Origin: an uncultured Prevotella sp.
GTDB taxonomy: Bacteria; Bacteroidota; Bacteroidia; Bacteroidales; Bacteroidaceae
Reading direction: 5' to 3'
Assembly (NCBI GenBank): GCA_900550035.1
Contig: URQS01000002.1
Location: 17,150 to 81,149, forward strand
DNA: 64,000 bases
The number at the start of each line of letters is the position of its first letter. Positions within the stretch are counted from its first letter, which is position 1. Shown here in pieces: positions 6,746-59,093 of this stretch. The notes under the pieces were generated by a model, which was given only the letters and a program-made list of their open reading frames with translations, made no database searches and had not been told where the DNA came from. A program made the translations under genes and the position numbers.

Positions 6746-8176
6746 TCAGCTCTTCCTTGGCAGCCAACCGCTCATCCACAATCCAGCAAACGTCAGCATG
6801 CCGTTGAGCATAAGCAGTTCGTAGCCGAACTTATATCCCCACAGGCTCTGAGCTGCCGTATCAATGGCGAAGCAGAGCAATGGCGAGGCTACGGCTATGT
6901 AGGGCACGAGACAATCGGCTACGGGACGACGTGTCGTCAAGCCGAAGGCGAACAGACCAAGCAACGGACCGTAGGTGTACGAGCACATTACGTAGATGGC
7001 ATCTATCACGCTGGTGGAATTGAGCATTCGGAACATCAGGATGAACGCCACAAACACTACGGCAACGCCTATATGTGCACGTCGGCGCAGACGCTCGTCG
7101 GCAGGTCGCTGGCGTATGTCGACACAATAGCTTGTGGTGAGTGCCGTAAGAGCAGAGTCGGCACTTGAGAACGAAGCCGCCACAACACCGATGGTGAAGA
7201 GCACCGTAACTATGCTGCCCAACCTGCCCGTAGCTGCAAACATAGGCAACAGCTCGTCGCCACTTGTCGGCATGGCTATGCCGTCGCGTTGTGCCAGCAT
7301 CATGAGCAGTACGCCGAGCGACATAAACAGTAGGTTGGCAGGTACAAAGGCGAATCCGTAGGTACACACATCCTTCTGAGCCTCGCGTAGCGTGCGACAC
7401 GTGAGATTCTTCTGCATCATGTCCTGGTCGAGTCCGGTCATAACGATGGCTATGAAGGCACCGCTGAACAACTGCTTCCAGAAGTTCTGCGTCGAGAAGA
7501 AGTCGTCCATTACAAACATACGGCTGTGGCTGTCGGCTGCTATGGCACGCACCGCCTCGGGGATGCTCATACTCAACTGTCCCACCACATTATATATAAT
7601 AAGTATAAGGGCTGCAAACATACACGTGGTCTGGAACGAGTCGGTCCATACCAACGTCTTTATGCCACCACGACGAGTATACAGCCATATCAGCAACGTC
7701 ATGCCAACCACCGTAACGACGAAGGGTACGCCTACAGCATCGAGCACAAAACGTTGCAGAATGATGCACACCACATAGAAGCGTACAGCAGCACCCGTCA
7801 TCTTCGAAATAAGGAAGAACCACGCTCCCGTCTTGTACGAACGCTCTCCAAAGCGCCCCTGCAGATAGGTGTAGATTGTGGTGAGATTAAGTCGGTAATA
7901 AACCGGCAACAACACAAAGGCTATGACAAAATATCCCAGAATGAATCCTATGCACGTCTGGATGTAGGTCATGTCGATGCGCATGGTCATACCGGGCACG
8001 CTGACGAACGTTATGCCCGAGATTGACGCGCCCACCATGCCGAACGCCACCATATACCACGGCGAACGGCGGTTGGCCCGAAAGAAAGTTTCGTTGTTGG
8101 CATTACGATGTGCCGTGAGTCTGCTGAACCCCATGAGAGCAGCAAAATACAGAATTACTGTTAAGAGTATAAGCAT
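6746..8176 (-). CDS. Sodium:solute symporter family protein
   Basis: Many TM helices; ASISGITFVSVPG, GGIKTLVWTDSFQ, GLDQDMMQKNL motifs. Confidence 0.9.
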   Translation of the reverse strand: MLILLTVILYFAALMGFSRLTAHRNANNETFFRANRRSPWYMVAFGMVGASISGITFVSVPGMTMRIDMTYIQTCIGFILGYFVIAFVLLPVYYRLNLTTIYTYLQGRFGERSYKTGAWFFLISKMTGAAVRFYVVCIILQRFVLDAVGVPFVVTVVGMTLLIWLYTRRGGIKTLVWTDSFQTTCMFAALILIIYNVVGQLSMSIPEAVRAIAADSHSRMFVMDDFFSTQNFWKQLFSGAFIAIVMTGLDQDMMQKNLTCRTLREAQKDVCTYGFAFVPANLLFMSLGVLLMMLAQRDGIAMPTSGDELLPMFAATGRLGSIVTVLFTIGVVAASFSSADSALTALTTSYCVDIRQRPADERLRRRAHIGVAVVFVAFILMFRMLNSTSVIDAIYVMCSYTYGPLLGLFAFGLTTRRPVADCLVPYIAVASPLLCFAIDTAAQSLWGYKFGYELLMLNGMLTFAGLWMSGWLPRKS

Positions 8177-14762: not shown

Positions 14763-15340
14763 TTATTCGCAAACGATGCTTCCGCCCATTAGCTGCATCA
14801 TAATCTTCACATTTCCATTCTTTCCGACTTTCGTTTTCTTCACAGCCGACTTAGGCCAGAAGCTATTCTTGTCGGCAGTCTCGTAATAACTGCTTACTTC
14901 CTTGCCTGTGAGCATAGGCAATGAGAGATTGAGCGAGAGCGGTTTGTTGGTGCCGTTGAGTGCTGCCACATACCATTTGTCGCCGTGACGACGTGCTATG
15001 AGAACATATTTGCCTGGATAACCATCAATGAATCGGGTCTCGCCCCATGTAGTAGGAACATCCTTAAGGAAGTCAATTTCGTGCTGTGGAAGTTCAGTGA
15101 GGTTGTTGGGATAGATGGCTATGCACTGAATGCTTGCCTGATTGGCAATAGCGGCAGCCATCTCAAACACGTCGGACGTATAACGACGATGACGGCTCTT
15201 ATTGTCACGCGACATGTAACGGTTCATAATAGTGCCTCCCCAATCCATTGCAGCAACAGTGTTGCGACAGAACGAAGTGCGCCCGTTGACGCAGCAGCAA
15301 AAAGCAATGCTGTGATAGAATTTCTGAGCGAAATGTTCAT
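14763..15340 (-). pseudogene. GH97 glycoside hydrolase with a large internal deletion
   Basis: Signal peptide from ATG 15340 (MNISLRNSITALLFAAASTGAL) is joined out of frame to the C-terminal portion FCRNTVAAMDWGG...PTTWGETRFIDGYPGKYVLIARRHGDKWYVA. Confidence 0.8.
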
Positions 15341-29224: not shown

Positions 29225-29304
29225 CCAACATGGTTTTTCTTGTTACGTATTTGAATTCTGCAATTCGTAATATAATCGAACTTGAGAACAGAAAACCCAA
29301 AATT

Positions 29305-31650: not shown

Positions 31651-31661
31651 AAATAATCCTT

Positions 31662-33593
31662 ATGAACTATATATATTATATATTCCGTCGCTTGTCGGTT
31701 GTCTGCTCGATGCTTATGGCAGCGCTGACGGTGCATGCGCAAGAGTCGTTGCAGTCGCCCGATGGCAAATACACATTCGTGTTCGCCACAAAGAAGGGAC
31801 AGCTCACCTACTCTCTCTCCTATAGCGGCAAGACCATTATAGAACAAGGCGAGCTGGGTGTCAACATCGACAACCACCTTGTGGAGTCGGCTATGGGCAT
31901 ACCGGTGGATACCAACCGTGTGTGGACCAAGGGAATGGAAGTAATCAATGTGACCCGTCTGAGCGAAGACAATACTTGGAAGCCAGTCTATGGCGAGTAT
32001 GCCCAGATACGTGACCACTACAATGAGATGACCATACACCTGATAAAGGGTGGCAATCACAACAACAGCTCTAACGGTTACGACAAGCGCCAACAGTATC
32101 TCTTCGACATCATCGTACGTGCCTACGATGAGGGTGTAGCCATACGCTACCACTTCCCCGAGGCTACAAATGGACTGTTTATGCACATCACATCCGACCT
32201 CACGTCCTTCGCATTCGCTCCAGGTGCAGAGGCTTGGCACTTTGCCTGGGCACAATCGCACGCCGAACGTGTGCCTCTGATCAAGAGCCAGCCTGCATGG
32301 CGCGAAAAGGCAGAGCGTCCGCTGACGCTCCGTCTTGCCAATGGCTTGTATGCAGCAATAGGCGAGGCTGCCCTGAGCGACTTTGTACGAGGCAAGCTAC
32401 AACTTGTCGACGACAACAAGCTGCAAATGGCTCTGTACGATTCTGCCGACATCATCACCGCCTACGACATGCCGTGGCGATATATTATGGTGGGCGAGAA
32501 GGCTGTCGACCTTATCAACAACAAGCAGATGGGGCTCAATCTCAATGCGCCTTGCAAGATACAAAATACCTCTTGGATTCGTCCCGGCAAGGCTTTCCGT
32601 GTGTGCCGACTGGATATGAAGACTTGCATGGAGGGTGTGGACTTCTGTGTGGATAGAGGTCTTCAGTACATCGAGCTTGATGCAGGTTGGTATGGTCCAG
32701 AGATGAAGATGTCTTCTTCTGCCTTGAAAGTATTGGAAACTCGCGACATTGATATGCCAAAGCTCTGCCAGTATGCCAAGAGCAAGGGCATCGGCGTGTG
32801 GGTTTATGTCAACCAGAGAGCCTTGTATCAAGAGCTTGACCAGCTTTTGCCGCTCTATGAGAAGTGGGGCATCAGTGGCATCAAGTTTGGCTTTGTGCAG
32901 ATAGGTTCGCAGGAGTGGACCACTTGGCTTCACAATGCCGTAAAGAAATGTGCCGACTATCACATCATGGTGGATATCCACGATGAGTATCGTCCTACGG
33001 GATGGAGCCGCACTTATCCTAATCTCATGACGCAAGAAGGTATCGGAGGCAATGAGGAAATGCCAGATGCTGAGCACAACACGGTGCTACCCTTCACCCG
33101 ATTCCTCTGCGGACCTGCCGACTACACTCCATGCTACTTCAACGGCAGAGTGAAGAACACCAAGGCACACCAGTTGGCCATGCCAGTAGTGTATTACAGT
33201 CCGATAACATTCCTCTACTGGTACGACCTGCCCAATGTATATAAAGGCGAGACGGAACTCGACTTCTGGAAGCATTGCCCAACGGTGTGGGACGAGAGCA
33301 AGGCTCTCGACGGCGAGATAGGCGAATACATAGTCCAGGCACGCCGTTCGGGCAACGAATGGTTTGTCGGCGCCATGAACGGATTGCAACCACGCGACAT
33401 AACAATCGCAACATCGCGATTCCTTCAACATGGCAAACGCTATCGTATGGAGGTATACAACGACGACCCCTCGCTCAATACACGCACCAAGGTGTCATCC
33501 ACCATCATGAACATCAAGGCTGGCAAGACCCTCCGTCTGCATCTGCAGCCATCGGGCGGCGCGGCTTTGCGCTTTGTATTAATGGACAAATAA
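31662..33593 (+). CDS. Glycoside hydrolase family 97
   Basis: SPDG, RAYDEGVA, WIRPGK, LDAGWY, PTGWSRTYPN, GPADYTP, PTVWDES motifs; start placed at MNYIYY. Confidence 0.92.
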   Translation: MNYIYYIFRRLSVVCSMLMAALTVHAQESLQSPDGKYTFVFATKKGQLTYSLSYSGKTIIEQGELGVNIDNHLVESAMGIPVDTNRVWTKGMEVINVTRLSEDNTWKPVYGEYAQIRDHYNEMTIHLIKGGNHNNSSNGYDKRQQYLFDIIVRAYDEGVAIRYHFPEATNGLFMHITSDLTSFAFAPGAEAWHFAWAQSHAERVPLIKSQPAWREKAERPLTLRLANGLYAAIGEAALSDFVRGKLQLVDDNKLQMALYDSADIITAYDMPWRYIMVGEKAVDLINNKQMGLNLNAPCKIQNTSWIRPGKAFRVCRLDMKTCMEGVDFCVDRGLQYIELDAGWYGPEMKMSSSALKVLETRDIDMPKLCQYAKSKGIGVWVYVNQRALYQELDQLLPLYEKWGISGIKFGFVQIGSQEWTTWLHNAVKKCADYHIMVDIHDEYRPTGWSRTYPNLMTQEGIGGNEEMPDAEHNTVLPFTRFLCGPADYTPCYFNGRVKNTKAHQLAMPVVYYSPITFLYWYDLPNVYKGETELDFWKHCPTVWDESKALDGEIGEYIVQARRSGNEWFVGAMNGLQPRDITIATSRFLQHGKRYRMEVYNDDPSLNTRTKVSSTIMNIKAGKTLRLHLQPSGGAALRFVLMDK

Positions 33594-41695: not shown

Positions 41696-41789
41696 ACGTA
41701 TAACAAACAATAGCTGCGCTTCCTTATTACTCAGCAAGCTTTTGACATATCGAAAGGTATGGGCATCTGGGGCATGCTGATTATTGCGC

Positions 41790-41827
41790 CCTCGCGAGGA
41801 AACAATTGCAACCTCGCGAGGAAACAA
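41790..41827. repeat. Two direct copies of CCTCGCGAGGAAACAA, 22-bp period
   Basis: 41790-41805 and 41812-41827; the core CCTCGCGAGG is palindromic. Confidence 0.8.
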
Positions 41828-42796: not shown

Positions 42797-44020
42797 ATGA
42801 AGTTTAGTTATTGGTATTACATCGCTACGCTTTTAGCATTGCTGCTCGCAACGGGCAGCAATGCTAAAGTCATCATTACAGCCACTAACACCTCGCAGCA
42901 TCAGCGCCAGGAGGTTGTGGCATGGAACGCCAAGGACGTTTGGCAGCGGCTTGGAGTAAAGGAGGGCAGCAGCTTGATAGTGAAGAATCCTTACGGTCAG
43001 ACCGTAACTCATCAGATTACACACGACGGCCGACTGCTCATTGACGTGACGGTGCGACCGGAAGGCACGGCTGAATTTACGGTTGAGCAGGGCAACAGCG
43101 CCGACTTCAAGCCTTATGTATTCGGCAAGCAGTATGCCTGGCGTGTCGACGACATAACGTGGGAGAACGACATTGCTGCCTATCGTGTCTACGGTCCGGC
43201 TCTGCAACGTTCGGGCGAGAAGGCTTATGGCATCGACGTATGGCTGAAGAGTACCAAGGAGCTTGACGTTGACCATCGCTATGCCGTGACATGGCAGTCG
43301 AACATCGACAAGGCTTTCTTCCGTAGCATTGGCAATCAGGAGGGAGTCGACTTCGTTGACCGTGCCACATCCTTCCACCTCGACCACGGACAGGGACTCG
43401 ACTGCTACAACGTAGGGCCGAGTATGGGATGCGGCACGCCTGCCGTGATGATTGGCGACTCGCTGGTTATGCCCTATTGCTATAAGGACTATGAGATATT
43501 GGACAACGGACCGCTTGAATTCACGCTCAGCCTTACATATCCAACGGTAGATATAGACGGACAAAACGTGACCGAACATCGACTGATATCGCTTGCCAAG
43601 GGTTGCTACTTCAACCGTATGACGGTATGGTACGACGGTCTGACCCGACCGATGGATGTGGCTGGAGGCTTCGTTGTGCATACATCTGCCTCTGAAGACC
43701 TAACGCTGGGCAAGGACTTCATCGCCTACGATGACCCAACCGATTCGTACGAACGTCATAACTTCCAGATATATGTGGCTGCAATTTTCCCCGAAGGCGG
43801 AGTGAAGACACGCTTTTTGCCCGACTGGGAGCACCTGAAGCAGGGCATCTATGGCAATGCTGTGGGCGTAAAGCGTGGCGTGAAAGCAGGCGAGAAGTGG
43901 AGCTACTGGTTTGGAGCGTCATGGTGTCAGAGCGGTACACCCGACCACGACTTCTGGATGATGCAGATAGACAGATTCAAAGAATATATAGCCAAGCCCC
44001 TGACCACAAGCATCAAGTAG
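42797..44020 (+). CDS. DUF4861 family secreted protein
   Basis: RVDDITWEND..YRVYGPAL, GIDVWLK, HLDHG.GLDCY.VGPS.GCG, ILDNGPL motifs. Confidence 0.85.
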   Translation: MKFSYWYYIATLLALLLATGSNAKVIITATNTSQHQRQEVVAWNAKDVWQRLGVKEGSSLIVKNPYGQTVTHQITHDGRLLIDVTVRPEGTAEFTVEQGNSADFKPYVFGKQYAWRVDDITWENDIAAYRVYGPALQRSGEKAYGIDVWLKSTKELDVDHRYAVTWQSNIDKAFFRSIGNQEGVDFVDRATSFHLDHGQGLDCYNVGPSMGCGTPAVMIGDSLVMPYCYKDYEILDNGPLEFTLSLTYPTVDIDGQNVTEHRLISLAKGCYFNRMTVWYDGLTRPMDVAGGFVVHTSASEDLTLGKDFIAYDDPTDSYERHNFQIYVAAIFPEGGVKTRFLPDWEHLKQGIYGNAVGVKRGVKAGEKWSYWFGASWCQSGTPDHDFWMMQIDRFKEYIAKPLTTSIK

Positions 44021-44102: not shown

Positions 44103-45335
44103 ATGATAAAGACCAAACGATTGATAGCACTCCTGTTTGCCGCCTTTGCCTTTAGTTCAGCCATAAGCATACAGGCGCAGACTCTCGACATAGACCGACA
44201 ATTGAAGTATTGCAGCACACAGGTGCACCGTGCTCTCGACGAGCTGCGTCATAAGGACGGCACATACGACTATACGATGCAACCCCGCAACATACTCAAT
44301 ACCGACAGACATAAGGGATGGAACTGCCGACCGGCTAAAGCCGAGGAGTGGTGCGACGGTTTCTGGCCAGGCATACTGTGGATGACATACCAGAATACCG
44401 GCGACGAGGCTGTGCGCCGTGCAGCCGAGGGATATACAGAGTCGCTACGGGACATAGCCTATCAGCCTTGCTACGACCATGACATAGGTTTCCTCATGTT
44501 CTGTTCATACGGCAAGGGCTATGAAGTGAACCATTCACGTGAATACAAGGACGTGATTCTTGCCTCAGCCGACTCGCTCGCCACGCTGTTCAATCCTATC
44601 GTAGGCACTATATTGAGCTGGCCACGCGAGGTAAAGCCACGCAACTGGCCCCATAACACCATTATGGACAACATGATGAATCTCGATATGATGTTCTGGG
44701 CAGCCAAGAACGGTGGCAACCCATTGCTCTACGACCTGGCTGTGACTCACGCCAAGACAACCATGCTGAACCACTTCCGCCCCGACGGCAGCTGCTATCA
44801 CGTGGCTGTATACGACACCATCAACGGCAATCTCATCAAGGGCGTCACGCATCAGGGCTATGCCGACAACTCGATGTGGGCACGTGGACAGTCGTGGGCT
44901 ATATACGGCTACACTATGGTGTACAGATATACACATAATAAGGTATTCCTCGACTTCGCGCAGAAAGTTACCGATGTTTATCTGAAACGACTCAAGCAGA
45001 CAAGCGACGACCTCATACCATTATGGGACATGGACGACCCTCGTGGCACAAAGGCTCCTAAGGATGCCAGTGCAGCGTGCGTTGTTGCCGATGCCTTGCT
45101 CGAACTGCAAGAGTATGTCGGCGATGAGAAGGGGGCTGAATACAAGGCTATAGCCCTGCAAACGCTCGCACAACTCAGCACACCGAAGTATCAGAGTGGC
45201 AAGCGCAACGTATCGTTCCTCATGCATAGCACAGGTCATCATCCTGCCGGAAGCGAAATCGATGCAAGCATAATATATGCCGACTACTATTATCTCGAAG
45301 CTCTGATGAGGGCAAAGCGTCTGAATGTGCGCTAA
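44103..45335 (+). CDS. GH88 unsaturated glucuronyl hydrolase
   Basis: Signal peptide; WCDGFWPG, HDIGF, TIMDNMMNL, THQG...WARGQSWAIYG, YADYYYLEAL motifs. Confidence 0.93.
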   Translation: MIKTKRLIALLFAAFAFSSAISIQAQTLDIDRQLKYCSTQVHRALDELRHKDGTYDYTMQPRNILNTDRHKGWNCRPAKAEEWCDGFWPGILWMTYQNTGDEAVRRAAEGYTESLRDIAYQPCYDHDIGFLMFCSYGKGYEVNHSREYKDVILASADSLATLFNPIVGTILSWPREVKPRNWPHNTIMDNMMNLDMMFWAAKNGGNPLLYDLAVTHAKTTMLNHFRPDGSCYHVAVYDTINGNLIKGVTHQGYADNSMWARGQSWAIYGYTMVYRYTHNKVFLDFAQKVTDVYLKRLKQTSDDLIPLWDMDDPRGTKAPKDASAACVVADALLELQEYVGDEKGAEYKAIALQTLAQLSTPKYQSGKRNVSFLMHSTGHHPAGSEIDASIIYADYYYLEALMRAKRLNVR

Positions 45336-45583: not shown

Positions 45584-46519
45584 TTATTCCTTATTCTGCC
45601 GCATCTTCTCGCGCAGCTCCTTCAGATTGAGCTTTCTGTGTGCCTTGACATGGTCGAAGCCCTGACCGTAGACCCCTATTACCGACGACTGTGCCACAAA
45701 GGCATTGGGGTCAATCTCGTCGATGAGTTCGAAGATGAAGCTCGACTCGCTCTTCTTGGCTATGCAGAATAGCACCTTAATGTCTTTCTTGGTGAAGAAT
45801 CCGCTACCATTGAGCATAGAGCAACCGCGGTCGGCTATCTGATTGATGGCCTCGCCTATCTCCTGATACTTGTCGGATATGATGAAGAACTGCACGCTTC
45901 GGCGTAGAGAGTTGACCAAATGGTCGACAACAAACGAGATGACGAAGAGCAGAACGTAGCCGTAGAGCACCTTTTCCCAGTCTTGCAGCACCACATACGA
46001 CGAGGTGATGATGGTAAGGTCGCAGAAGAGGATGATATGGCCGAGCGACACGTCACGATACTTATGCACCATAGCAGCAATAACGTCCGAACCACCTGTC
46101 GAACCTCCTGCCGACAGACCCAGTCCGACGCTGGTGCCCAAGAACACGGCACCAACCATACATGCCATGAATTTCTGGTCGGCAAGCAGATGCAGATCGG
46201 GCGGCATAATGCTCTGCAATATAGTAGAGGCAAGCGTGAACACCACAACTCCGTAGATGGTCTTGGCACAGAAACGCCATCCCAGCACCTTCAGAGCCAC
46301 GATAAGCAGCACAGCGTTGAGCGCAAAGAAGGTGTCCTGCACGGGTATGCCCGTGCCCCAATACACAATCGAAGCCACACCGATGATGCCGCCAGTAGTG
46401 ATTTCGTTGGGCAGCAGGAACAGATTAAGACCTACTACGCCTAACAACATTGCAATGGTGATGATGCCATAGTCGCGCAACTGGCGCAACAACTTGCCTT
46501 TGTTTCTTCTTGAATGCAT
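45584..46519 (-). CDS. YitT family membrane protein
   Basis: TGGIIG, GGSTGGSD and IDPNAFV...G.YGQGF motifs. Confidence 0.9.
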   Translation of the reverse strand: MHSRRNKGKLLRQLRDYGIITIAMLLGVVGLNLFLLPNEITTGGIIGVASIVYWGTGIPVQDTFFALNAVLLIVALKVLGWRFCAKTIYGVVVFTLASTILQSIMPPDLHLLADQKFMACMVGAVFLGTSVGLGLSAGGSTGGSDVIAAMVHKYRDVSLGHIILFCDLTIITSSYVVLQDWEKVLYGYVLLFVISFVVDHLVNSLRRSVQFFIISDKYQEIGEAINQIADRGCSMLNGSGFFTKKDIKVLFCIAKKSESSFIFELIDEIDPNAFVAQSSVIGVYGQGFDHVKAHRKLNLKELREKMRQNKE

Positions 46520-46856
46520 AAATTGTCGATTTGTTTAGATCATTTTTCCAACTAAAAATGTTGGTATGCAAAGTTAATAAGAATTACTAAAAACGACAAG
46601 AATTTTTGTGTCCTAAAAATCACACAACAAAAAAAAACAACATCTCAACACCATAACTTTGGAGCACTGCCCCAAACAATATTTGCATTTTCTATCACTC
46701 AAAACTGCGACCTGAACGCACAAGGAAATCTTTGGCTCGAAATTCGCGAGTTTTGAGCTCTTAGCATCAAAGCATTGGATTTCAATCACTTGCAGCATTA
46801 CCGCCCAAAATAAGCAATGGCAAACCTCACAAAAACAGTCCTTCTCATTTAAAATG

Positions 46857-46944
46857 GACTACTTTTGCAATGCAAAAAGACTACAGTTGCAATGCAAAAC
46901 GACTACAGTTGCACTGCAAAAGGACTACATTTGAAGGCAAAGAA
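46857..46944. repeat. Four tandem degenerate 22-bp repeats
   Basis: Units start at 46857, 46879, 46901 and 46923; consensus GACTACAGTTGCAATGCAAAAN. Confidence 0.85.
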
Positions 46945-47081
46945 GGATAAAATGAAAAATTGAAGGGCAACTGACAAGCAAAAAAGCAATAAAAACGCTC
47001 ATGTAATTCTCTAAAATCGATTTTTGATTTGTAACACTTTTTTACCGCATGTACTATATTTGCATATGAAAAATACCAAAT

Positions 47082-47118
47082 AAAAAAAGCCCAGAGCGTA
47101 ATGCCCTGGGCTTTTTTT
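47082..47118. terminator. Terminator of the kdu operon
   Basis: AAAAAAAGCCCAGAGC-GTAAT-GCCCTGGGCTTTTTTT. Confidence 0.88.
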
Positions 47119-47135
47119 AGTATATAAACTTACGA

Positions 47136-47930
47136 TTATGGCTGCTTGCCGATGTAAGCCAAGATACCACCGTCTACGTAGAGAACGTGACCGTTTACGA
47201 AGTTTGAGGCATCGCTGGCGAGGAACACAACGGGACCCATCAAGTCCTCGGGAGTACCCCAACGTGCAGCAGGAGTCTTAGCTACGATGAAGCTGTCGAA
47301 CGGATGACGTGAGCCGTCAGCCTGACGCTCGCGCAGAGGAGCGGTCTGAGGAGTAGCGATGTAGCCCGGACCGATACCGTTGCACTGTATGTTGTATTCG
47401 CCGAACTCTGAACAAATGTTGCGTGTGAGCATCTTCAAGCCGCCCTTTGCAGCTGCGTATGCCGAAACAGTCTCACGACCAAGCTCTGACATCATTGAGC
47501 AGATGTTGATAATCTTGCCGTGACCCTTCTCCTTCATGCCAGGAATGACAGCCTTAGACACGATGAAAGGAGCGTTGAGGTCGATATCGATAACCTGACG
47601 GAAGTCCTCTACAGACATCTCAGTCATAGGAATACGCTTGATGATACCAGCATTGTTAACGAGGATGTCGATAAAACCGAGTTCCTTGTTGATGTCGGCT
47701 ACCATTGCCTTTACCTGCTCTTCGTCGGTAACGTCGCAGATATAACCATGAGCCTCGATGCCCTTAGCCTTATAGTCGGCAAGAGCCTGGTCCATGTGGT
47801 GCTGTGAACGGCAGTTGAACGCAATCTTTGCGCCTGCATTGTACAGAGCTTCAGCCATAGCAAAACCGATGCCGTAGGCTGCTCCAGTAACGAGGGCTAC
47901 CTTGCCCTCAAGTGAAAACATTTTGTCCAT
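47136..47930 (-). CDS. kduD: SDR, gluconate 5-dehydrogenase/KduD-like 2-keto-3-deoxygluconate oxidoreductase
   Basis: TGAAYGIG, NNAG, YAAAK motifs; directly after kduI. Confidence 0.85.
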   Translation of the reverse strand: MDKMFSLEGKVALVTGAAYGIGFAMAEALYNAGAKIAFNCRSQHHMDQALADYKAKGIEAHGYICDVTDEEQVKAMVADINKELGFIDILVNNAGIIKRIPMTEMSVEDFRQVIDIDLNAPFIVSKAVIPGMKEKGHGKIINICSMMSELGRETVSAYAAAKGGLKMLTRNICSEFGEYNIQCNGIGPGYIATPQTAPLRERQADGSRHPFDSFIVAKTPAARWGTPEDLMGPVVFLASDASNFVNGHVLYVDGGILAYIGKQP

Positions 47931-47947
47931 TGTTGTTACTTTTAGTT

Positions 47948-48865
47948 TTATTTCAAGTCAGTTGTCTGGATTTTCTGCATATCGCCATAGTCGAGATTCT
48001 CGCCTGCCATACCCCAGATGAATGTATAGTTGCTGGTACCGGCAGCGCAGTGAACCGACCATTGCGGAGAGATGACAGCCTGCTCGTTGTTCAGCCACAT
48101 CGGACGGGTCTCCTGCGGCTCACCCATAATGTGACAAATGCGCTGCCCCTCGGGTACGTTGAAGTAGAGATAGGTCTCCATACGGCGCATGTGTGTGTGA
48201 GCCGGCATTGTGTTCCATACCGAACCGGTCTTCAGCTCGGTAACACCCATCTGCAACTGGCATGTGCGTACGCCTGCTACACCGTTGATGATGAGCTGAT
48301 GTATAACACGGTCGTTGCTCTCGGCAAGCGAACCAGCCTTGATGTTCTTGGCTTCCTTCAGTGTGACGAGCTTTGTGGGGAATGAAGTGTGAGCTGTAGC
48401 ACTGTTCATATAGAACTTGGCAGGATTCTTGGGGTCCTTGCTTGAGAGTGTGATGTTGTTAGGGTTTTTCTCTGTAGAGCGTCCTATGTAGATGCCCTCC
48501 TGGAAGTTGAGGTCGTACTTCTTGCCGTCAACTGTAACAACACCAGGTCCGCCGATGTTGATGATACCCATCTCACGGTTCTCGAGGAATGTCTTGGCGA
48601 GCAGCGGCTCGATTGGTTCGATCTTGATAGGAGCGTCAACTGGCTCGGCACCTCCTATGAGGAAGCGGTCGTACATAGTGTATGTCCAGTTAACTTCGTT
48701 TGGAGCGAATACCTTCTCTACCAAGAACTCCTTGCGCAAACGGTCGGTAGTGTAGTGCTTGGCATCCTCCGGATGATTCGCCCAACGTACCTGATAGTTT
48801 ACATTCTGTGCCATTGCCGACATTGACATGAGGGCAACGGCTGCTGTGATGAATAATTTCTTCAT
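47948..48865 (-). CDS. kduI: 5-dehydro-4-deoxy-D-glucuronate isomerase with an N-terminal signal peptide
   Basis: [36 protein letters not shown] motifs; leader [20 protein letters not shown]. Confidence 0.95.
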
Positions 48866-48888
48866 TTATCTATTGTTTGTTTTTAGAT

Positions 48889-50250
48889 TTACTTGCGTGT
48901 AACGTCCTTAACGATGCGTGTGCGGTTGTACCACATCATACCCAATGTGATGGCTACAAGGATAGCCGGGCCAACATACTTGACATGGCATGAGAGCTTG
49001 TAGATGATCCATCCGAATGACGAAGCGGCAAAGTCGAGTGCACCACCCGAGAATCCTTCAGGAATGTGAGCGGTAGCGTCGCCAGTGGCAGCATATACCT
49101 GATTGGCTGCCATGGTGAAGTCGGGAGCCATATCCGTTACGAAGTACAGACCGATGATGAGCGTTACAAGACCGATGATGAGGGTCTTCACCACATTGCC
49201 CTTAGTGAAAGGCAATACCATCGGGAACAGATAGAACATTCCGGCGAGCGATGCCAACGGAAGGAACTGATTGCCCGGGAGGAACACAGCCAATGCAAGG
49301 ATAACGGGGATGAGGATGACCGAAGCCACGAGTGTGGTAGGATGACCGATAACGAGAGCGGGGCTCATACCGATGTAGACCTTCTTGCCGTTGAACTTCG
49401 ACTTAACCAGCTCCTGTGTCTTCTCCGAAATAGGCTTCAATCCCTCGATGAAGAGTGATGTGATGCGTGGGATAAGCTCCATAACGGCACCCATTGTAAC
49501 GCCGAGGAAGAGCACCTTCTTGATGTCAAGCTGTGCTGCCCAACCGATGAGCATACCTACGATGACACCCAATACGAGCGGTTCGCCGAGCACACCAAAC
49601 TTCTTCTTCATGCCCTCAGCGTCGATGTCGAGCTTAGAGAAGCCTGGAATGCTGTCGAGAGCCTTGTTGAATATGATGGCGAAAGGCATGAAGCTCTGGC
49701 AGAAAGGCTGCGGAATAGAGATGCCTTCGAGGTCGTAATGCTTCTGGAACTTCTCGGCTGTAAGGTCGGCACATACAAGTGTGTTGATGTAGCAGATGAT
49801 GGCTGCAAAGTAGCCCCACAACAGGCTCTCGCCCATCACGAAATATACAACCGCACCGATGAATGCAAAGTGCCAGTAGTTCCAAAGGTCGATATTGACA
49901 GTACGTGTGGTCTTGGTGATGAGCATGAGGAAATTGACGCCAAGACAGATGGGGATGATGAGTGCGCCAACAGCGGTGTTGTAAGCCACAGCGGCTGCAG
50001 CAGGCCAACCCATGTCGAACACGTTGAGCTGCAAATGATATATCTCGGAGATGCCCTTGAGCGGATCGTTGAAGTTGGAGGTAAGCAATGATGTAACAAC
50101 TCCCAAACCTACGAAGCCCACACCAACATAAAGTCCCGACTTGAATGCCTTGCCGAACTTCATGCCGATGCCAAGACCGATGACGGTGAAGAGTATAGGC
50201 ATCATCACCGATGCACCAAGACTAATTATGTAACTGAAAACTTGATCCAT
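48889..50250 (-). CDS. PTS galactitol-family EIIC (GatC-like) permease, orphan
   Basis: LGASVMMP, DMGWP, RTVNIDLWNYWHFAF, LPGNQFLPLASL motifs; many TM helices; no EIIA or EIIB in the window. Confidence 0.88.
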   Translation of the reverse strand: MDQVFSYIISLGASVMMPILFTVIGLGIGMKFGKAFKSGLYVGVGFVGLGVVTSLLTSNFNDPLKGISEIYHLQLNVFDMGWPAAAAVAYNTAVGALIIPICLGVNFLMLITKTTRTVNIDLWNYWHFAFIGAVVYFVMGESLLWGYFAAIICYINTLVCADLTAEKFQKHYDLEGISIPQPFCQSFMPFAIIFNKALDSIPGFSKLDIDAEGMKKKFGVLGEPLVLGVIVGMLIGWAAQLDIKKVLFLGVTMGAVMELIPRITSLFIEGLKPISEKTQELVKSKFNGKKVYIGMSPALVIGHPTTLVASVILIPVILALAVFLPGNQFLPLASLAGMFYLFPMVLPFTKGNVVKTLIIGLVTLIIGLYFVTDMAPDFTMAANQVYAATGDATAHIPEGFSGGALDFAASSFGWIIYKLSCHVKYVGPAILVAITLGMMWYNRTRIVKDVTRK

Positions 50251-50289
50251 TTATTTTTAATATAAGGAAAGATTATAGTTGCTATATAT

Positions 50290-50964
50290 TTACTTAGACT
50301 CGCGTGCATTGGCTACATACTGCAACGACTCGCGGCACTTGTCGCTAACGGCCTTCCAGTCGCCTGCAGCGATAGTGGCCTTCGGGAACAGCTTAGAGCC
50401 CATGCCTACGCAGTTGGCGCCAGCCTTGATCCATGAAGCAATGTTGTCAGCGTCGGGCGAAACACCACCGGTAACCATGATGAGCGACCAAGGCATCGGA
50501 GCCTTCAAGCCCTTAACGAAGTTAGGACCGAGAACGTCGCCAGGGAATACCTTGCAAAGGTCGCAACCCATCTCCTGAGCCATACCTACCTCTGTCACCG
50601 AACCGCAACCCGGTGTGTAGGGGATGAGGCGGCGGTTGCACACCTTGGCAACATCGGGGTTGAACAACGGGCCTACTACGAAGCAAGCACCAAGCTGGAT
50701 GTAGAGCGATGCTGTAGGAGCGTCAACAATTGAACCTACACCCATAGCCATCTCAGGACATTCCTTTGCTGCAAACTTAACCACCTCGGCAAACACTTCG
50801 TGTGCGAAGTCGCCACGGTTGGTGAACTCGAATGCGCGCACGCCACCCTCGTAGCATGCCTTTACTATATTCTTTGCTATCTCTACATCGTTGCTGTAGA
50901 ATACAGGTACCATACCGGTTCCGGTAATCTTAGCAAGTACCTGCTGTTTGTTGAATTTTGCCAT
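50290..50964 (-). CDS. eda: KDPG/KHG aldolase
   Basis: FEFTNR, GVGSIVD, PGC....E, CKVFPG, MVTGGV motifs; start placed at MAKFNK. Confidence 0.92.
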
Positions 50965-50980
50965 AATTAAAGTATAATTG

Positions 50981-51026
50981 GAAGCCCTACCCCCAGCCCC
51001 TCCCCCGTAGGGAGGGGAGTGGTATG
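50981..51026. repeat. GC-rich REP-like palindrome between kdgK and eda
   Basis: CCCCAGCCCCTCCCCCGTAGGGAGGGGAG hairpin. Confidence 0.65.
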
Positions 51027-51064
51027 TTGGGCTACTTAAAGATTTTAAAATTAATTTTAAAGTT

Positions 51065-52087
51065 TTATCTCTGTACTCTACCGTTAGCATTACCAGCAGC
51101 AAGAGCCTCTACCTCGTCAACTGCAACAAGGTTGAAGTCGCCATTGATAGTGTGCTTCAGAGCCGAAGCAGCTACTGCAAACTCGAGAGCCTCGCCCTGT
51201 GTCGGCTTGGTGAGCAAGCCGTGGATAAGACCACCTGAGAATGAGTCGCCACCACCTACGCGGTCGATGATAGGCATGATGTCGTAACGACGGCTCTCGT
51301 AGAACTCCTCACCGTTGTAGATAAGAGCCTTCCATCCGTTGTGAGTAGCCGAGAAGCTCTCGCGCAATGTAGAAACTACGTACTTGAAACCGAACTCCTT
51401 CTGCATCTGCTCGAAAATCTTGTGATAACCGCTTGCGTCGGTCTGGCCACCCTCTACGTCAGCGTCGGGCTTGAAGCCGAGGCAGAGCTGTGCGTCCTCC
51501 TCGTTGCCGATGCAAACGTCAACATACTGCATCAATGGGCGCATTACAGAGATTGCTTTCTCAGAAGTCCAAAGCTTCTTGCGGAAGTTGAGGTCGACGC
51601 TCACTGTAACGCCATGACGCTTGGCAGCCTCGCAAGCGAGACGGGTCAGCTCGGCAGCCTTGTCGCTGATAGCTGGTGTGATGCCGCTCCAGTGGAACCA
51701 CTGTGCGCCCTCCATGATAGCGTCGAAATCGAAATCCTCGGGATTAGCCTCGGCGATAGAAGAGTGTGCACGGTCGTAGATAACCTTCGACGGACGCATT
51801 GAAGCACCTGTCTCAGCATAGTAAAGACCTACGCGTTCGCCACCACGAGCGATGAAGCGTGTATCAACGCCATAACGACGCAATGCGTTGATGGCAATCT
51901 GTCCGATGTCGTGCTTAGGAAGTTTGCTCACAAAGTAAGCCTCATGTCCATAGTTGGCCACACTTACAGCCACATTAGCCTCACCACCACCAGGGATGAT
52001 ACGGAACATTTCTGACTGGATGAAACGATCGTTGCCGTTAGGCGAAAGGCGGAGCATAATCTCGCCAAGAGTAATAATTTTTGCCAT
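51065..52087 (-). CDS. kdgK: 2-keto-3-deoxygluconate kinase (PfkB family)
   Basis: [29 protein letters not shown] motifs. Confidence 0.93.
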
Positions 52088-52182
52088 TGTTGTTATATAT
52101 GTTAATATCTTTAGTTAATAAGTATACGAGTTTATAGAATAACCTACTGATATAAGAACTGATATATACACTCTATACTGTC

Positions 52183-53412
52183 TTATTTAACAGTTACGGC
52201 AGTCTGCAGAGGCTGCTTAAGGTTGTTGATAAAGTCTTCTATCTGCATGTACCACACACGCTGGTTGGGAGTTCCGCTCTTGCACCATGAGGCGCCGAAG
52301 TAGTAGGTGAACTGTTCGTTGTTCTTCACGCCACGCTTTACGCCGACGGCGTTGCCCACGATGCCTGCCTTCTTGTGCCAAGGGTCGCGTACGAGCTGGG
52401 TGGCGTCGGCTCCGTTGGGGAAGAGTGCTGCCACATAAATCTCAAACTGATGGCGCTCGGCTGAATCTGTCGGGTCGGTATAGGCTACATAGTTGGGCGC
52501 GAGCTTCAGGTCGGATGCCTTCTCAGTGTGCACTACCACTCCACCGCAAACGTCCATCGGCTTCTTGAGTCCGTCGTACCAAACGGTCATCTTGTTGAAG
52601 AACGACCACTTGTCGAGGCTTATGATACGGTGTTCGGTCACGTTCTGACCGTCAATCTTCTCGGTATTATAAACAAGTTCGAGTGTGAAGCGCAGCGGAC
52701 CATTGTCAAGCACGCGGTATTCCTTGAAACAATACGGCATTACGATGCTGTCGCCAAGCATGATGGCAGGTGTACCGCATCCCAGGCTGGGACCTACGTT
52801 GTAGCAGTCGAGTCCGGTGCCGTGGTCTAGGTGGAGCGAAACAACCTGGTCGAGCGAGTCGGCCTCCTGCTTGCGTCCTTCCTTGCGCATCTGTGCCGAA
52901 AGACGATGGCCGTTGTATACAACAGCATAGCGCTTCTCTACATCGGGATAAGGAGTGCTCTTGAGCCACACGTCCATACCAAACGCTTTCTCGCCGGTGC
53001 GCTGCAATGCAGGACCGTAAGCTCTGTACGAGCAACGGTCGTTCTCCCATACGAAGTCGTCGACACGCCAAGGATACAGTTTTCCTTCAGCAAAGCTCTG
53101 TATAGGGGCGGGTGTGCCTGCCTTGACATAGAACTTGGCTGTGCCGCCAGGGATAACAGTAGTCTCGACAAGCAGCTTGTTGTCGTGTGTTATCTGGCAT
53201 GCCTCTGGCAGTCCATAGGGGTTTAACACTCTCACGGGGCTGCCCTGGGCCACTCCGAGAGCCTTCCACACTTCGTTGGCATCGAACTCTGCCACCTCAA
53301 GTCGTTGCTCCTGTCCGCTGTTTTTCACGGTGAGCACAACATCGGCCATGCATTCAACCCCTTGAACCATTGCAAGGAGAAGCATGAACGCATACTTTAT
53401 TTTCCGTATCAT
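52183..53412 (-). CDS. DUF4861 family secreted protein, paralog of 42797-44020
   Basis: Same motif set (WRVDDFVWEND, HLDHGTGLDCYNVGPSLGCGTPA). Confidence 0.85.
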   Translation of the reverse strand: MIRKIKYAFMLLLAMVQGVECMADVVLTVKNSGQEQRLEVAEFDANEVWKALGVAQGSPVRVLNPYGLPEACQITHDNKLLVETTVIPGGTAKFYVKAGTPAPIQSFAEGKLYPWRVDDFVWENDRCSYRAYGPALQRTGEKAFGMDVWLKSTPYPDVEKRYAVVYNGHRLSAQMRKEGRKQEADSLDQVVSLHLDHGTGLDCYNVGPSLGCGTPAIMLGDSIVMPYCFKEYRVLDNGPLRFTLELVYNTEKIDGQNVTEHRIISLDKWSFFNKMTVWYDGLKKPMDVCGGVVVHTEKASDLKLAPNYVAYTDPTDSAERHQFEIYVAALFPNGADATQLVRDPWHKKAGIVGNAVGVKRGVKNNEQFTYYFGASWCKSGTPNQRVWYMQIEDFINNLKQPLQTAVTVK

Positions 53413-54134: not shown

Positions 54135-55691
54135 TTATTTGAGCGCTACTTTAGCCAAAATGCCTTCTGTAGCCCATGGGTCTTCGATTTCTTTTAGAAT
54201 CTGACCCATTCGCTTGGTGAGCTGTTTAATCAGTTTGCGATTCTCAGGCTTGTTGGCAATATTGTTGAGCTGATAAGGATCGTTCTGGTCGTCGAAGAGC
54301 AGAATCTCCTTACGCTTGTAGTCGCGTGTGATGTATATTGCCATTGTGTAGCGGTGGGTCTTGAGTCCGCGTGCTGCCGGGAAATAGTTGACAACGAGTC
54401 CGTCCTTATCCTTGTCGCCGTCCATATTCTGTATGTACAGAGCTGCATCGGGACGCTCAACGGTCTTAGACGCAGGGTCGAGGAAGAGGCTTGAATAGTC
54501 GACACCCTGAGTTACCGACGGAATCTGGTCGTGCAGACCTACAAGACCGAGCATTGTAGGCATGATGTCGGGCGACGAAAGCAGCAGATTGTCGGTACGC
54601 GGAGTGAGATGGCCCTTATATCTTATTAAGAATGGAACGTTCATCGACTCTGAATACGGCGAGTTCTTAGGGTCGTCGGTGTTCTGCGAGCACATCGTCT
54701 CGCCGTGGTCGGATGTGAACACAACGATTGTATTGTCGTCAAGACCTGCCTCACGCAGTGCATCGAGAATCATGCCGAAGGCGCGGTCAACGCCCGTAAC
54801 CGATGCGAAATAATAGCGAACAGACTCTGCCTTGCGCATTTCGCGGTTCGCATTCTTACGAACGAGGAGCTGGTCGAGCGGCTGCTTGGCATACAGATTA
54901 TAATCTTCTTCCATACAGTCGGTGAGCGAACGATACGGGCTGTGAGGCGGGTTCATGCCCACCATGAGGAAGAACGGCTTGTTGGAGTCGCGCTCGCCGT
55001 TACGGTTGAGAATGTAGCTTACGGCATGCTTTGCCTCATATATAGGCGACCATTCGTGCGGATCGTGACGATTGCCGTTGTTGTCCCAGTAGTGCGGGTT
55101 CTTGTGCTCGTCGAATGTGCCGTACGAGAGCCAATAGTTGAATCCGTGACGCTGTTGCGGCTCGGTGTAGGCATCCCATACGGGGCGCTGTGTCTCTACG
55201 TATTCGCCGGGATTCTGTGGCGAGTTCTTGGTTGGGAACTGCACGTGCAGCTTGCCGATGTATCCGCAGTCGTAGCCCGCCTGGCTCATCACGTCGCTCC
55301 AGCTTACGGGGTCGGTGAGCCAAGAAGAGATAGGACGGCTTGAGTTGCAGTTGAGAGGAACACCACTCTTATTAGGATACATACCAGTAAGCAGCGAGCC
55401 ACGATGGGGGCTGCTCAACGGACAGTTGCTCTGTGCCGATGTGAGCACTACCGATTCACGAGCGAAGCGGTTGATATTGGGGGTATGCACGGGGTCGTTC
55501 TGCGAGTTGATGGATCCCTCAAAGCCTGGTTGGCCCCAGAACTCCATGGCGTAATTGCGCATCTGGTCGGGGAATACATACACCACATTAGGACGCTGCT
55601 GTGCGGCAGCTGTTGTAGCAAACACCGAAAGTATAGGTGTTGCAACGTTCTTTAGCATAGACAGCTTGCTAAAAAAGCTTGAATTAGACAT
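54135..55691 (-). CDS. S1 (Ser-type formylglycine) sulfatase, probably chondroitin 4-O-sulfatase-like
   Basis: PNVVYVFPDQ, SSPHRGSLLTG, GYIGKLH, NPPHSPY, FTSDHG motifs. Specificity rests on recalled resemblance to B. thetaiotaomicron BT3349 and is not verified. Confidence 0.85.
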   Translation of the reverse strand: MSNSSFFSKLSMLKNVATPILSVFATTAAAQQRPNVVYVFPDQMRNYAMEFWGQPGFEGSINSQNDPVHTPNINRFARESVVLTSAQSNCPLSSPHRGSLLTGMYPNKSGVPLNCNSSRPISSWLTDPVSWSDVMSQAGYDCGYIGKLHVQFPTKNSPQNPGEYVETQRPVWDAYTEPQQRHGFNYWLSYGTFDEHKNPHYWDNNGNRHDPHEWSPIYEAKHAVSYILNRNGERDSNKPFFLMVGMNPPHSPYRSLTDCMEEDYNLYAKQPLDQLLVRKNANREMRKAESVRYYFASVTGVDRAFGMILDALREAGLDDNTIVVFTSDHGETMCSQNTDDPKNSPYSESMNVPFLIRYKGHLTPRTDNLLLSSPDIMPTMLGLVGLHDQIPSVTQGVDYSSLFLDPASKTVERPDAALYIQNMDGDKDKDGLVVNYFPAARGLKTHRYTMAIYITRDYKRKEILLFDDQNDPYQLNNIANKPENRKLIKQLTKRMGQILKEIEDPWATEGILAKVALK

Positions 55692-57014: not shown

Positions 57015-59093
57015 ATGTCCAAACTCAGAATACTCGCTGTAAACCTGTGCCGACTGGTACTTGGCCTGACATTCATACTTTCGGGATATGTCAAGGCTAT
57101 CGACCCGCTTGGCACACAATACAAACTGAAGGACTATGCAGCCGCATTGCATCTGGCGGAGTACATACCCGACTGGCTCACGCTCACGGGAGCGATAACA
57201 TTGGCTATGACGGAGTTTGCATTGGGCATATTCATGCTGTTTGCGATACGCCGCCGACTTGTGTCAAAGCTCACGACGGCAATGATGGTGGTGATGACAC
57301 TCATCACGGTGTGGATATTCATTGCAAACCCAGTGAAGGACTGCGGATGCTTCGGTGACGCAATAAAACTGACCAACGGCGAGACTCTGCTCAAGAACAT
57401 TGTGCTGCTGGCAGCAGCAATAATAACGATGTTGCGCCCGATGGACATGGGCAGACTCATATCGAAGTCGAACCAATGGATTGTGACCAACTACTCGCTG
57501 ATATACATCGTGTGCACAAGCATATACTGCCTGTATGCCCTACCGACGTTCGACTTCCGTCCGTATCACATAGGAGCCAACATCAAGAAGGGCATGGAGA
57601 TACCCGAAGGGGCAGAACAGCCGGAGTTTGAGACTACATTCATACTGAAAAAGAACGGACAGACACGCGAATTCACGCTCGACAACTATCCTGACTCTAC
57701 TTGGGAGTTTGTCGACTCGAAGACCATTCAGACACGACAAGGCTATGAGCCACCAATACACGACTTCAGCCTGACGGACACGGAAACCGGCGAAGACATC
57801 ACCGAGAATGTGCTCAACCATAAGGGCTACACTTTCTTGCTCATATCACGTTCGCTGGCATACGCCGATGACAGCAATTTCGGCAACATCGACCAGATAT
57901 ACGAGTATGCAACCGAATACAATATACCGTTCTACTGCATAACGGCATCTACCGACAAAGACATCAACCGATGGCGCGACATGACAGGAGCAGAATACCC
58001 GTTCTGCACAGCCGACGAGACAACACTCAAGACCATAATACGTAGCAACCCCGGACTGCTGCTCCTTAAGGATGCAACCATCATAGGCAAGTGGAGCCAC
58101 AACCAATTGCCAAACACCGAAGAACTGACAGCAAGCCCCGACAAGCTGCCTATAGGACAACAGACAGACGACGGAGTGACCGGCAAACTGATTAAGGTGC
58201 TGCTGACATTCCTGCTGCCTCTGACTGTGCTGACCATTGCCGACCGCATATGGGCATGGTCGAAGTGGGTGCGCAACAAAGAAAAGAAAGAATCGGACAA
58301 AATATTTCAAATCTTTAAAAACAAAAGGAAAATGAGAAAGAAAATTGTAGCAGGTAACTGGAAAATGAACCTCAACCTGCAGGATGGCGTTGCTCTCGCT
58401 AAGGAAATCAACGAGGCACTTGTAGCTGACAAACCAAACTGTGAAGTTATCATCTGCACTCCGTTCATCCACCTCGCTTCTGTAGCTCAGGTGCTCGACC
58501 AGAACGTAGTAGCTCTCGGTGCTGAGAACTGCGCTGACAAGGCTAAGGGTGCTTACACTGGCGAAGTTTCAGCTGAGATGGTTAAGAGCACTGGTGCTCA
58601 GTACGTAATCCTCGGCCACTCAGAGCGTCGTCAGTACTACGGCGAGACTGCTGAGATTCTGAAGGAGAAGGTAGACCTCGCACTTGCTAACGGTCTGAAG
58701 ATTCTCTTCTGCTGCGGCGAGACTCTTGAGGAGCGTCAGGCAGAGAAGCAGAACGAGGTAGTAAAGGCAGAACTCGAAGGCTCAGTATTCCACCTCGACG
58801 CAGAGGCTTGGAAGAACATCGTTATCGCTTACGAGCCAATCTGGGCTATCGGTACTGGCATGACTGCTACTTCTGACCAGGCTGAGGAGATGCTTGCTTA
58901 CATCCGCTCAATCGTTGCCGAGAAGTACGGCCAGGAGGCTGCTGAGGAGACTTCTATCCTCTACGGTGGAAGCTGCAAGGCAAGCAACGCTCCCGAGCTC
59001 TTCTCTAAGCCTAACATCGACGGTGGCCTCATCGGTGGCGCTTCATTGAAGTGCGCTGACTTCAAGGGCATCATCGACGCTTGGAAGAAGTAA
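57015..59093 (+). CDS. tpiA: DoxX/MauE-like (BT_3928-type) membrane protein fused in frame to triosephosphate isomerase (TPI part from 58332)
   Basis: N-part [23 protein letters not shown]-part [44 protein letters not shown]; no stop between them. Confidence 0.92.

Follow-up and report, generated by a model that had tools for sequence, protein, structure and literature searches.

The Six-Gene Run and Its Core Pair

The DNA analyzed here, called the window throughout, is a 64,000-nucleotide stretch of contig URQS01000002.1 (assembly GCA_900550035.1; positions 17,150 to 81,149, forward strand) from an uncultured Prevotella sp. It carries a run of six minus-strand genes for unsaturated-uronate catabolism—DUF4861 > kdgK > eda > EIIC > kduI > reductase—separated by gaps of 95, 100, 39, 23, and 17 bp in that order. 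The core of the run is an orphan permease of the Gat family of phosphotransferase-system (PTS) EIIC proteins (48889–50250) and KduI (47948–48865), the isomerase of 5-keto-4-deoxyuronate (DKI), whose first 19 residues form a Sec/signal peptidase I (SPI)-type signal peptide (48809–48865). Many gut Bacteroidaceae appear to isomerize DKI outside the inner membrane and to import it through this lone PTS-type permease, for which no phosphorylating partners were found.

Upstream of the core pair lie a DUF4861/BT3233-family protein with an N-terminal leader (52183–53412; PF16153 and, above cut-off, the NCBIfam BT3233 family); a leader-less KdgK-type PfkB kinase assigned by family models (51065–52087), which by family would convert 2-keto-3-deoxygluconate (KDG) to KDG-6-P; and the KDPG aldolase Eda (50290–50964; PRK07114 above cut-off), a 224-aa protein with an ATG start and no leader. 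The last gene (47136–47930) encodes a leader-less short-chain dehydrogenase/reductase (SDR) and is followed by an intrinsic terminator-like stem-loop on the same strand (47081–47119; 17-pair stem and T run). A sequence-only reading of this DNA had described the co-oriented order, short gaps, and terminator, all borne out by gene calls, family models, and the stem-loop. Its “kduD-like” label for the last gene stands as an SDR reductase but not as KduD proper: PRK07097 scores 497.9 (cut-off 369), whereas the KduD model TIGR01832 reaches only 228.6 (cut-off 338.85) and PRK06935 also falls below its cut-off. Taking the PRK07097 family to be DhuD, as we presume, the protein is a predicted DhuD-type (gluconate-5-dehydrogenase family) reductase of 2,5-diketo-3-deoxygluconate (DKII). 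Operons joining kduI and dhuD have been described in Bacteroidaceae (bioRxiv 10.1101/2025.01.30.635655). In close relatives, RNA-library contigs from four studies cover each of the six genes and run across most of the gaps, although such contigs cannot prove a single transcript or give an expression level.

KduI Carries a Conserved Export Leader

KduI, the sole copy found in the host genome, matches PF04962 (73.6 bits; cut-off 23.9) and PRK00924 (395.8; cut-off 250). Its metal-site motifs are intact (H223, H225, E230, H272), and the HxH..RxE and WSxH motifs, whose residues we take to be the metal ligands, occur in the host protein and in 105/105 leader-type sequences. The enzyme would thus be expected to convert DKI to DKII.

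The leader ends in Ala-Met-Ala and is followed by Gln20; family models and Protein Data Bank (PDB) chains start aligning only at residues 21–25. These features, with the n/h/c pattern, substantiate the Sec-type leader proposed from the sequence alone. Homologues down to ~48% identity keep the basic start and hydrophobic core, and Gln after a small-x-small site is usual, although the letters vary. In Bacteroidetes, Gln typically occupies the +1 position of SPI substrates (PMC5837995). Leader calls, made with an in-house hydrophobicity/charge heuristic rather than SignalP (one false positive, at locus L192, was rejected by eye), were positive for 97/97 EIIC-linked KduIs, and a small-x-small-Gln site is present in 85 of 98 calls. 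The canonical cytoplasmic pathway has a leader-free KduI; here the leader is present and conserved.

The leader may already be known: PDB 9KD0 is a KduI chain beginning at the predicted mature Gln (9KCZ is of the leader-less type), so its depositors probably recognized it. Our full-text literature search, with subscription journals mostly outside its coverage, returned no account of an exported KduI, and a paper on 9KD0/9KCZ may exist. At loci L122–L126 and L203–L206, exported KduIs carry 7–25 extra residues after the leader; one group of these often has Cys pairs, which could form periplasmic disulfides.

The Permease and the Leader Are Strictly Linked

To place the pair in context, we used 201 genomes of the host's family, chosen independently of EIIC and kduI. 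EIIC is present in 95/201 (97 matches) and kduI in 123/201 (150 of 151 kduI matches listed). Every one of the 97 EIIC matches has a co-oriented kduI downstream, and all 97 of these bear a leader; the distance from the end of the EIIC match is ≤410 bp in 95 cases, 1.3 kb in one, and 11.7 kb in one. Among 53 kduI genes unlinked to EIIC, 52 are leader-less and begin MK/RTNYE directly at the mature motif. The remaining one (locus L147, G548:C1:235381-235841) is a leader-type duplicate without an in-frame ATG, its N-terminus otherwise identical to that of the EIIC-linked copy in the same genome. Leader-less kduI also occurs in 24/95 EIIC genomes, with none among the matches listed in the other 71, host included.

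Broader samples gave the same pattern. At the order level, EIIC occurs in 5/251 genomes from three families, each time next to a leader-type kduI, and 0/25 leader-less kduI loci examined have EIIC within 1.5 kb; in the phylum sample, EIIC exceeds the cut-off in 1/301 genomes, that of the host alone. The co-occurrence of signal-bearing KduI with this EIIC, suggested by the sequence-only reading, is therefore found in 97/97 family and 5/5 order-level cases, with 52/53 unlinked copies leader-less. What that reading had framed as a feature of this operon is really a two-gene module in about half of the sampled family genomes.

Neighborhoods vary around this module. Among 80 loci picked by EIIC similarity, kduI is present in 77 (the remaining three stop at or just past EIIC) and a major facilitator superfamily (MFS) gene follows kduI in 57, with kdgK, eda, dhuD, and DUF4861 nearby in just 2–5. 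The six-gene arrangement is thus a rarer, local form of the module. A DhuD-type reductase is encoded in 94/95 EIIC genomes. In an unrooted tree of 130 mature KduIs, from which leader-less copies of the host's own family were left out, a single branch parts 105 leader-type from 25 leader-less sequences. Judged by sequence, EIIC and leader-type KduI are one old pairing, retained in many gene neighborhoods.

The Permease Is a Gat-Family EIIC Outside Any PTS

The permease matches PF03611 (E 4.8e-73) and scores 391.6 bits against TIGR00827, the galactitol-specific PTS IIC model, below that model's cut-off of 542.2. Its predicted structure (predicted local distance difference test score 89.9) matches GatC and UlaA; against PDB 9U82, a GatC, Foldseek gave E 5.5e-27 and a template-modeling (TM) score of 0.73. 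No extra domain is present. Across 106 Bacteroidales EIICs, the cavity positions named for Leminorella grimontii GatC (LgGatC), mapped by sequence alignment with D406 placed by eye, are almost invariant: W82, N124, W126, H127, and D406 are retained, whereas D296 is replaced by Ser (Thr once), HGTS by QPFC (QPFV nine times), and F340 by Tyr. Loss of the acidic D296 from the cavity would fit an anionic substrate.

PTS partners were sought with PF00359 (IIA), PF02302 (IIB), and the HPr and EI families. The sequence-only reading had noted no EIIA, EIIB, EI, or HPr gene in the window; a profile search with positive controls likewise found no HPr, EI N-domain, EIIA_2, or PTS_IIB in the host genome (3.24 Mb, 89.5% complete). 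HPr is absent from all 95 EIIC genomes and present in 2/201 family genomes, both without EIIC. Of the 94 other EIIC genomes, 80 were searched for PTS components and UxaA, with EI-N in 0/80, EIIA_2 in 0/80, and PTS_IIB in 1/80, where a frame of 336 aa has a borderline match over 31 positions. By sequence and fold, the EIIC is a member of the Gat family, and it is not part of any PTS. The two HPr genes (L267, L268) come from two genomes of one genus of the family. A host match to the phosphoenolpyruvate-utilizer family was considered as Enzyme I and rejected, being by sequence pyruvate phosphate dikinase; its gene (L001, G000:C58:523-4578) is split into two overlapping frames, by assembly error or a real frameshift.

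Other carriers are scarce in the host. Its genome has no match to the MFS neighbor, UxaC, UxaA, or mannitol-dehydrogenase-family UxaB, and no KdgT (PF03812) above cut-off, with a KdgT-like match below it. If KduI acts only outside, DKII must cross the inner membrane, and given these absences the EIIC would be its obvious carrier.

The nearest named non-Bacteroidota match among plasmid records is in Lactobacillus intestinalis (56% identical EIIC), where IclR is followed by kduD-EIIC-kdgK-eda without kduI, IIA, or IIB in the locus; no KduI was found on the 319-kb record. The cavity signature recurs in close homologues named from many Lactobacillales but is missing from most other Gat IICs. In the low-GC locus L274, the order is IclR-eda-kdgK-dhuD-EIIC, with a DhuD-type reductase, and the locus ends ~1 kb past EIIC. 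The subfamily thus travels with the post-isomerization steps, which favors DKII or KDG over DKI as cargo, on the thin base of three loci (the third, L275, is considered below). At 42–45% identity, relatives in Clostridioides difficile and Salmonella have adjoining IIA and IIB.

Published Data on Bacteroides thetaiotaomicron

The species gave a PF03611 match as a control, and published tables list BT4107 as PTS IIC and BT4106 as KduI 2 (PMC8121099, PMC10319031). In our full-text search, whose coverage mostly excludes subscription journals, no function was described for BT4107. Export of BT4106, the inferred ortholog of the host KduI, is shown by published fractionation: its log2 vesicle/outer-membrane ratio is +3.5, with mean peptide counts of 1 (inner membrane), 6.75 (outer membrane), and 15 (vesicle), and it is one of three “cytosol”-labeled proteins in the vesicle-enriched list (PMC6222051). 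In the same tables, the paralog BT3231 has a ratio of −4.3 with zero vesicle peptides, and the reductase BT3232 one of −7.5 (PMC6222051).

Supplement rows of a second study cover heparin, hyaluronan, and levan (PMC10319031). The vesicle-minus-membrane log2 values, in that order, are +1.1, +0.5, and −0.4 for BT4106; −5.2, −3.0, and −2.5 for BT3231; and −8.0, −8.0, and −6.4 for BT4107, and overall BT3231, BT3232, and BT4107 are depleted from vesicles by 2.5–8 log2 (PMC10319031). For KduI fractionation, which the sequence-only reading had proposed as a check, the published data accordingly place BT4106 in vesicles, opposite to BT3231.

Substrate contrasts from these tables compare separate published tables rather than a designed contrast. 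On hyaluronan relative to levan, BT4107 rises by +4.0 log2, BT4106 by +3.9 (~16-fold), BT4105 by +2.5, and BT3231 by +2.3, with AtpD, YidC, and SecY as controls at −0.7 to +0.4; on heparin relative to levan, BT4107 shows no rise (−0.6), the control rows covering hyaluronan and not heparin (PMC10319031). The label-free quantification (LFQ) intensity of BT4107 on hyaluronan is about that of SecY (PMC10319031). The database mass of BT4106, 33.05 kDa, equals that of a Met15 start in the closest relative fetched (full length 34.5 kDa), so the leader would be hidden in the database entry; this suggests a mis-set start in a reference entry.

A Possible Ring-Opening Step

The DUF4861 model is a generic, galactose-mutarotase-like beta-supersandwich. 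Mutarotases match at Z 13.1, and noncatalytic GH38 and lyase domains match at least equally (Z 13–16); invariant His, Asp, and Arg residues are present. No solved-structure sequence relative was found, and Atlas matches stayed below 0.9. In one protein (P0484) DUF4861 is fused to a GH88/GH105 domain, and long DUF4861 proteins of 759–766 aa occur within EIIC-kduI-dhuD loci (L074, L334), which would tie the family to DKI release. Disruption of BT3233 causes specific defects on chondroitin sulfate and heparin (PMC8121099). From the modeled fold and these mutant data, DUF4861 might tentatively be placed as a candidate periplasmic ring-opening step upstream of KduI.

A Proposed Split-Compartment Route and Its Alternatives

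Release of DKI by periplasmic lyases and GH88 is established for Bacteroides. In the route we favor, these enzymes would act on pectin or glycosaminoglycans to free DKI, whose ring form may be opened or interconverted by DUF4861; KduI, Sec-exported and cleaved before Gln20, would turn DKI into DKII in the periplasm; the lone EIIC, through the elevator motion that goes with its fold, would move unphosphorylated DKII over the inner membrane without a PTS; and cytoplasmic DhuD would reduce DKII to KDG, for phosphorylation by KdgK and cleavage of the product by Eda. As a proposed reason for the split, isomerization would have to precede import: the substrates that Gat carriers bind are linear and end in CH2OH, which describes DKII and KDG and not the aldehyde DKI. 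DKII is thus the candidate cargo, an anion whose import would probably depend on symport with H+ or Na+ or on its being trapped by the reaction that follows. Periplasmic isomerization, the central claim of the sequence-only reading, gains support from the leader, the strict linkage, and the vesicle partitioning of BT4106; the route as a whole, from periplasmic DKI-to-DKII conversion through PTS-independent import to the cytoplasmic finish, we regard as reasonably probable.

Several observations weigh against it. BT4106/BT4107 were assigned as orthologs by name, gene order, and mass rather than by direct alignment, and vesicle lists include true cytoplasmic proteins such as ribosomal S21 (PMC6222051). 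We found no published uptake assay. The single branch in the KduI tree means that the EIIC–leader linkage reflects one origin rather than 97 events, and since 28/123 kduI genomes are without EIIC, another DKI importer exists in the family. With Met13, Met15, and Met18 available, the host KduI could also be made in a cytoplasmic form from an internal start, and in 53/97 relatives an ATG lies no more than 16 codons from the mature motif. Low-GC locus L275, which lacks kduD, has a close EIIC inside a uxu/uxa cluster. The host genome, as noted, is incomplete.

Mutant data also count against the route. Random-barcode transposon sequencing lists specific phenotypes for BT4106 and BT4107 only on D-galacturonate (−1.6 to −1.8) and none on chondroitin sulfate, hyaluronan, heparin, or pectins; the source, Table S2, holds specific phenotypes only, so that weak or broad defects are invisible (PMC8121099). 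The growth defect on lyase substrates that the sequence-only reading expected of a permease mutant is thus not among the listed phenotypes of BT4107, in a strain that also has a leader-less KduI route. The silence on glycosaminoglycans may reflect redundancy between the two KduI routes. BT3231 has specific phenotypes on heparin and chlorpromazine (PMC8121099), and heparin could expose it because BT4107 is not raised there; the proposed route may therefore explain why BT3231 matters on heparin yet is unlisted for chondroitin sulfate or hyaluronan. On D-galacturonate, fitness values are −4.3 and −4.5 for BT4105 and −3.0 and −4.5 for the cytoplasmic UxaC (PMC8121099). As these two are strong requirements, the weaker BT4106/BT4107 defect is probably partial polarity on BT4105.

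The permease might instead accept 2-keto-3-deoxy acids broadly (DKI, DKII, and KDG alike) and carry them without a PTS, with periplasmic KduI an accessory that detoxifies the aldehyde, relieves GH88, or acts in vesicles, and with a cytoplasmic form or another enzyme as the essential isomerase. KdgT has such a broad range, and the host has no KdgT above cut-off; the internal Mets would allow a cytoplasmic form, and at L275 KDG would be the useful substrate. However, in 44/97 leader-type KduIs the 16 codons next to the mature motif hold no ATG, and the position of the internal ATG is not conserved. Leader and EIIC stay coupled in all 97 cases, a pattern one would not expect if DKI entered directly. 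As a possible DhuI, the host offers a single RpiB-family gene (151-aa frame); in a search with PF12408 (DhuI), no control gave a match. We consider this explanation unlikely. Under another, the pair would serve galacturonate, periplasmic KduI making tagaturonate for import by a galactitol-type EIIC. The D-galacturonate phenotypes fit this, as do the aid that Escherichia coli KduI gives to galacturonate conversion (PMC3578941) and the MFS gene after kduI in 57/80 loci, where B. thetaiotaomicron has the hexuronate transporter BT4105. Yet the host is without UxaC, UxaA, UxaB, and similar MFS matches, UxaA is missing from 22/80 EIIC genomes whereas DhuD is kept in 94/95, polarity would account for the weaker mutant phenotype, and BT4106/BT4107 are high on hyaluronan, which has no galacturonate; a galacturonate role is very unlikely.

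Still less credible is an EIIC that is no bulk importer but acts in sensing, in the export of surplus keto-acid, or through coupling to an unrecognized phosphoryl donor. Our searches were limited to AG-type IIA/IIB, HPr, and EI families, and the phenotypes listed for BT4106 and BT4107 (PMC8121099) include none on lyase substrates; nevertheless, the EIIC sits within catabolic operons holding KdgK, which would be redundant after group translocation, has no domain beyond the permease itself, and in BT4107 reaches SecY-like LFQ intensity on hyaluronan, making such a role highly improbable. That the leader is a gene-calling artefact, KduI being an ordinary cytoplasmic enzyme made from an internal Met, we find scarcely believable: the BT4106 mass matches a Met15 start and two proteomics tables label the protein “Cytosol” (PMC6222051, PMC10319031), but the n/h/c pattern and the +1 Gln are conserved to ~48% identity, BT4106 partitions opposite to BT3231, and PDB 9KD0 begins at that Gln. 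The split-compartment route also admits a more speculative extension, possible though doubtful, in which a PTS permease was domesticated as a DKII secondary carrier and vesicle-packed KduI makes DKII a shared extracellular currency, cross-feeding Lactobacillales that have the same permease subfamily, KduD/DhuD, KdgK, and Eda but no neighboring KduI.

Genomic Setting of the Operon

Glycan degradation is the theme of the window as a whole, which also encodes SusC/D pairs and a hybrid two-component regulator. On the plus strand lie a leader-bearing PL8 lyase (10089–12221), a source of unsaturated disaccharides; a heparinase II/III-like lyase (29230–31650); and a GH88 with an N-terminal leader (44103–45335), a likely periplasmic source of DKI, adjoined by a second DUF4861 gene (42797–44020) whose product is 57% identical to the first. 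A sulfatase (54135–55691) precedes the operon on the minus strand. Between it and DUF4861, two identical 18-nt direct repeats, 23 nt apart and unique in the genome (53842–53882), form a candidate regulator site for the operon. A dispersed GC-rich repeat of ~45 bp, resembling repetitive extragenic palindromes, lies in the kdgK–eda gap (50982–51026); with 79 blastn matches of at least 20 bases on 35 contigs of the same genome, it is nothing specific to the EIIC–kduI system.

Elsewhere, short 22-nt tandem repeats occupy intergenic positions 46852–46917 and 41783–41826. One 692-aa frame (57015–59093) joins an N-terminal MauE/DoxX membrane domain to triosephosphate isomerase, by fusion or read-through, and a short GH97 C-terminal fragment (14763–15248) stands apart from the full GH97 (31617–33593). 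Other uncharacterized inner-membrane proteins are a sodium:solute symporter (6746–8176) and a YitT-family protein (45584–46519).

Significance and Comparison with Known Systems

Whenever pectin or glycosaminoglycans are broken down by lyases plus GH88/GH105, the end product is DKI. A 2022 review has the monomers imported, with the carrier for DKI unnamed in the part available to us (PMC9067506). The EIIC is a candidate importer in about half of the sampled Bacteroidaceae, and a step that is usually cytoplasmic would shift to the periplasm. The module also offers a natural test, in the tractable host of BT4106/BT4107, of the old question of whether an AG-family EIIC functions without a PTS.

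Standard pathway descriptions place the KduI step in the cytoplasm. The cytoplasmic KduI-KduD/DhuD-KdgK-Eda pathway of E. coli, Dickeya, and BT3231–BT3233 has the same enzyme families and presumably the same chemistry as the host run, and the type E operon shares its kduI-dhuD adjacency (bioRxiv 10.1101/2025.01.30.635655). The host KduI differs in its SPI leader and its tie to EIIC, neither of which is mentioned in the accessible portion of that preprint, and leader-less KduI was not found in about three quarters of EIIC genomes. The inferred orthologous module BT4107 (EIIC)–BT4106 (KduI 2)–BT4105 (hexuronate transporter), with the same order and names, is annotated as a PTS component and a cytosolic enzyme; compared with it, the host lacks the MFS gene and has kdgK, eda, dhuD, and DUF4861 in the same run.

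The host EIIC shares its fold with galactitol GatC (E. coli; L. grimontii, PDB 9U82) and UlaA of the AG superfamily. It retains W83, N125, W127, H128, D399, and both hinge glycines; unlike GatC, it has D296 changed to Ser, HGTS to QPFC, F340 to Tyr, and S87 to Ala in the cavity, and no IIA, IIB, HPr, or EI was found with it. KdgT is the KDG:H+ symporter of Dickeya and E. coli, and its job is likely the same, bringing in a 2-keto-3-deoxy sugar acid for KdgK and Eda without help from a PTS; it belongs to a different Pfam family (PF03812), and we know of no case in which it pairs with an exported isomerase. By analogy, the EIIC may be a PTS permease turned to the work of a KdgT-type importer. Stand-alone Gat-family IIC proteins have reportedly been proposed as secondary carriers by Saier and the TCDB. 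GatC-mediated xylose uptake has been described (bioRxiv 10.1101/2025.04.02.646771), and the shared idea is a Gat IIC moving an unphosphorylated linear sugar. Compared with those stand-alone cases, here a PTS-less lineage keeps the IIC with a near-invariant cavity, a candidate substrate, and a dedicated partner enzyme.

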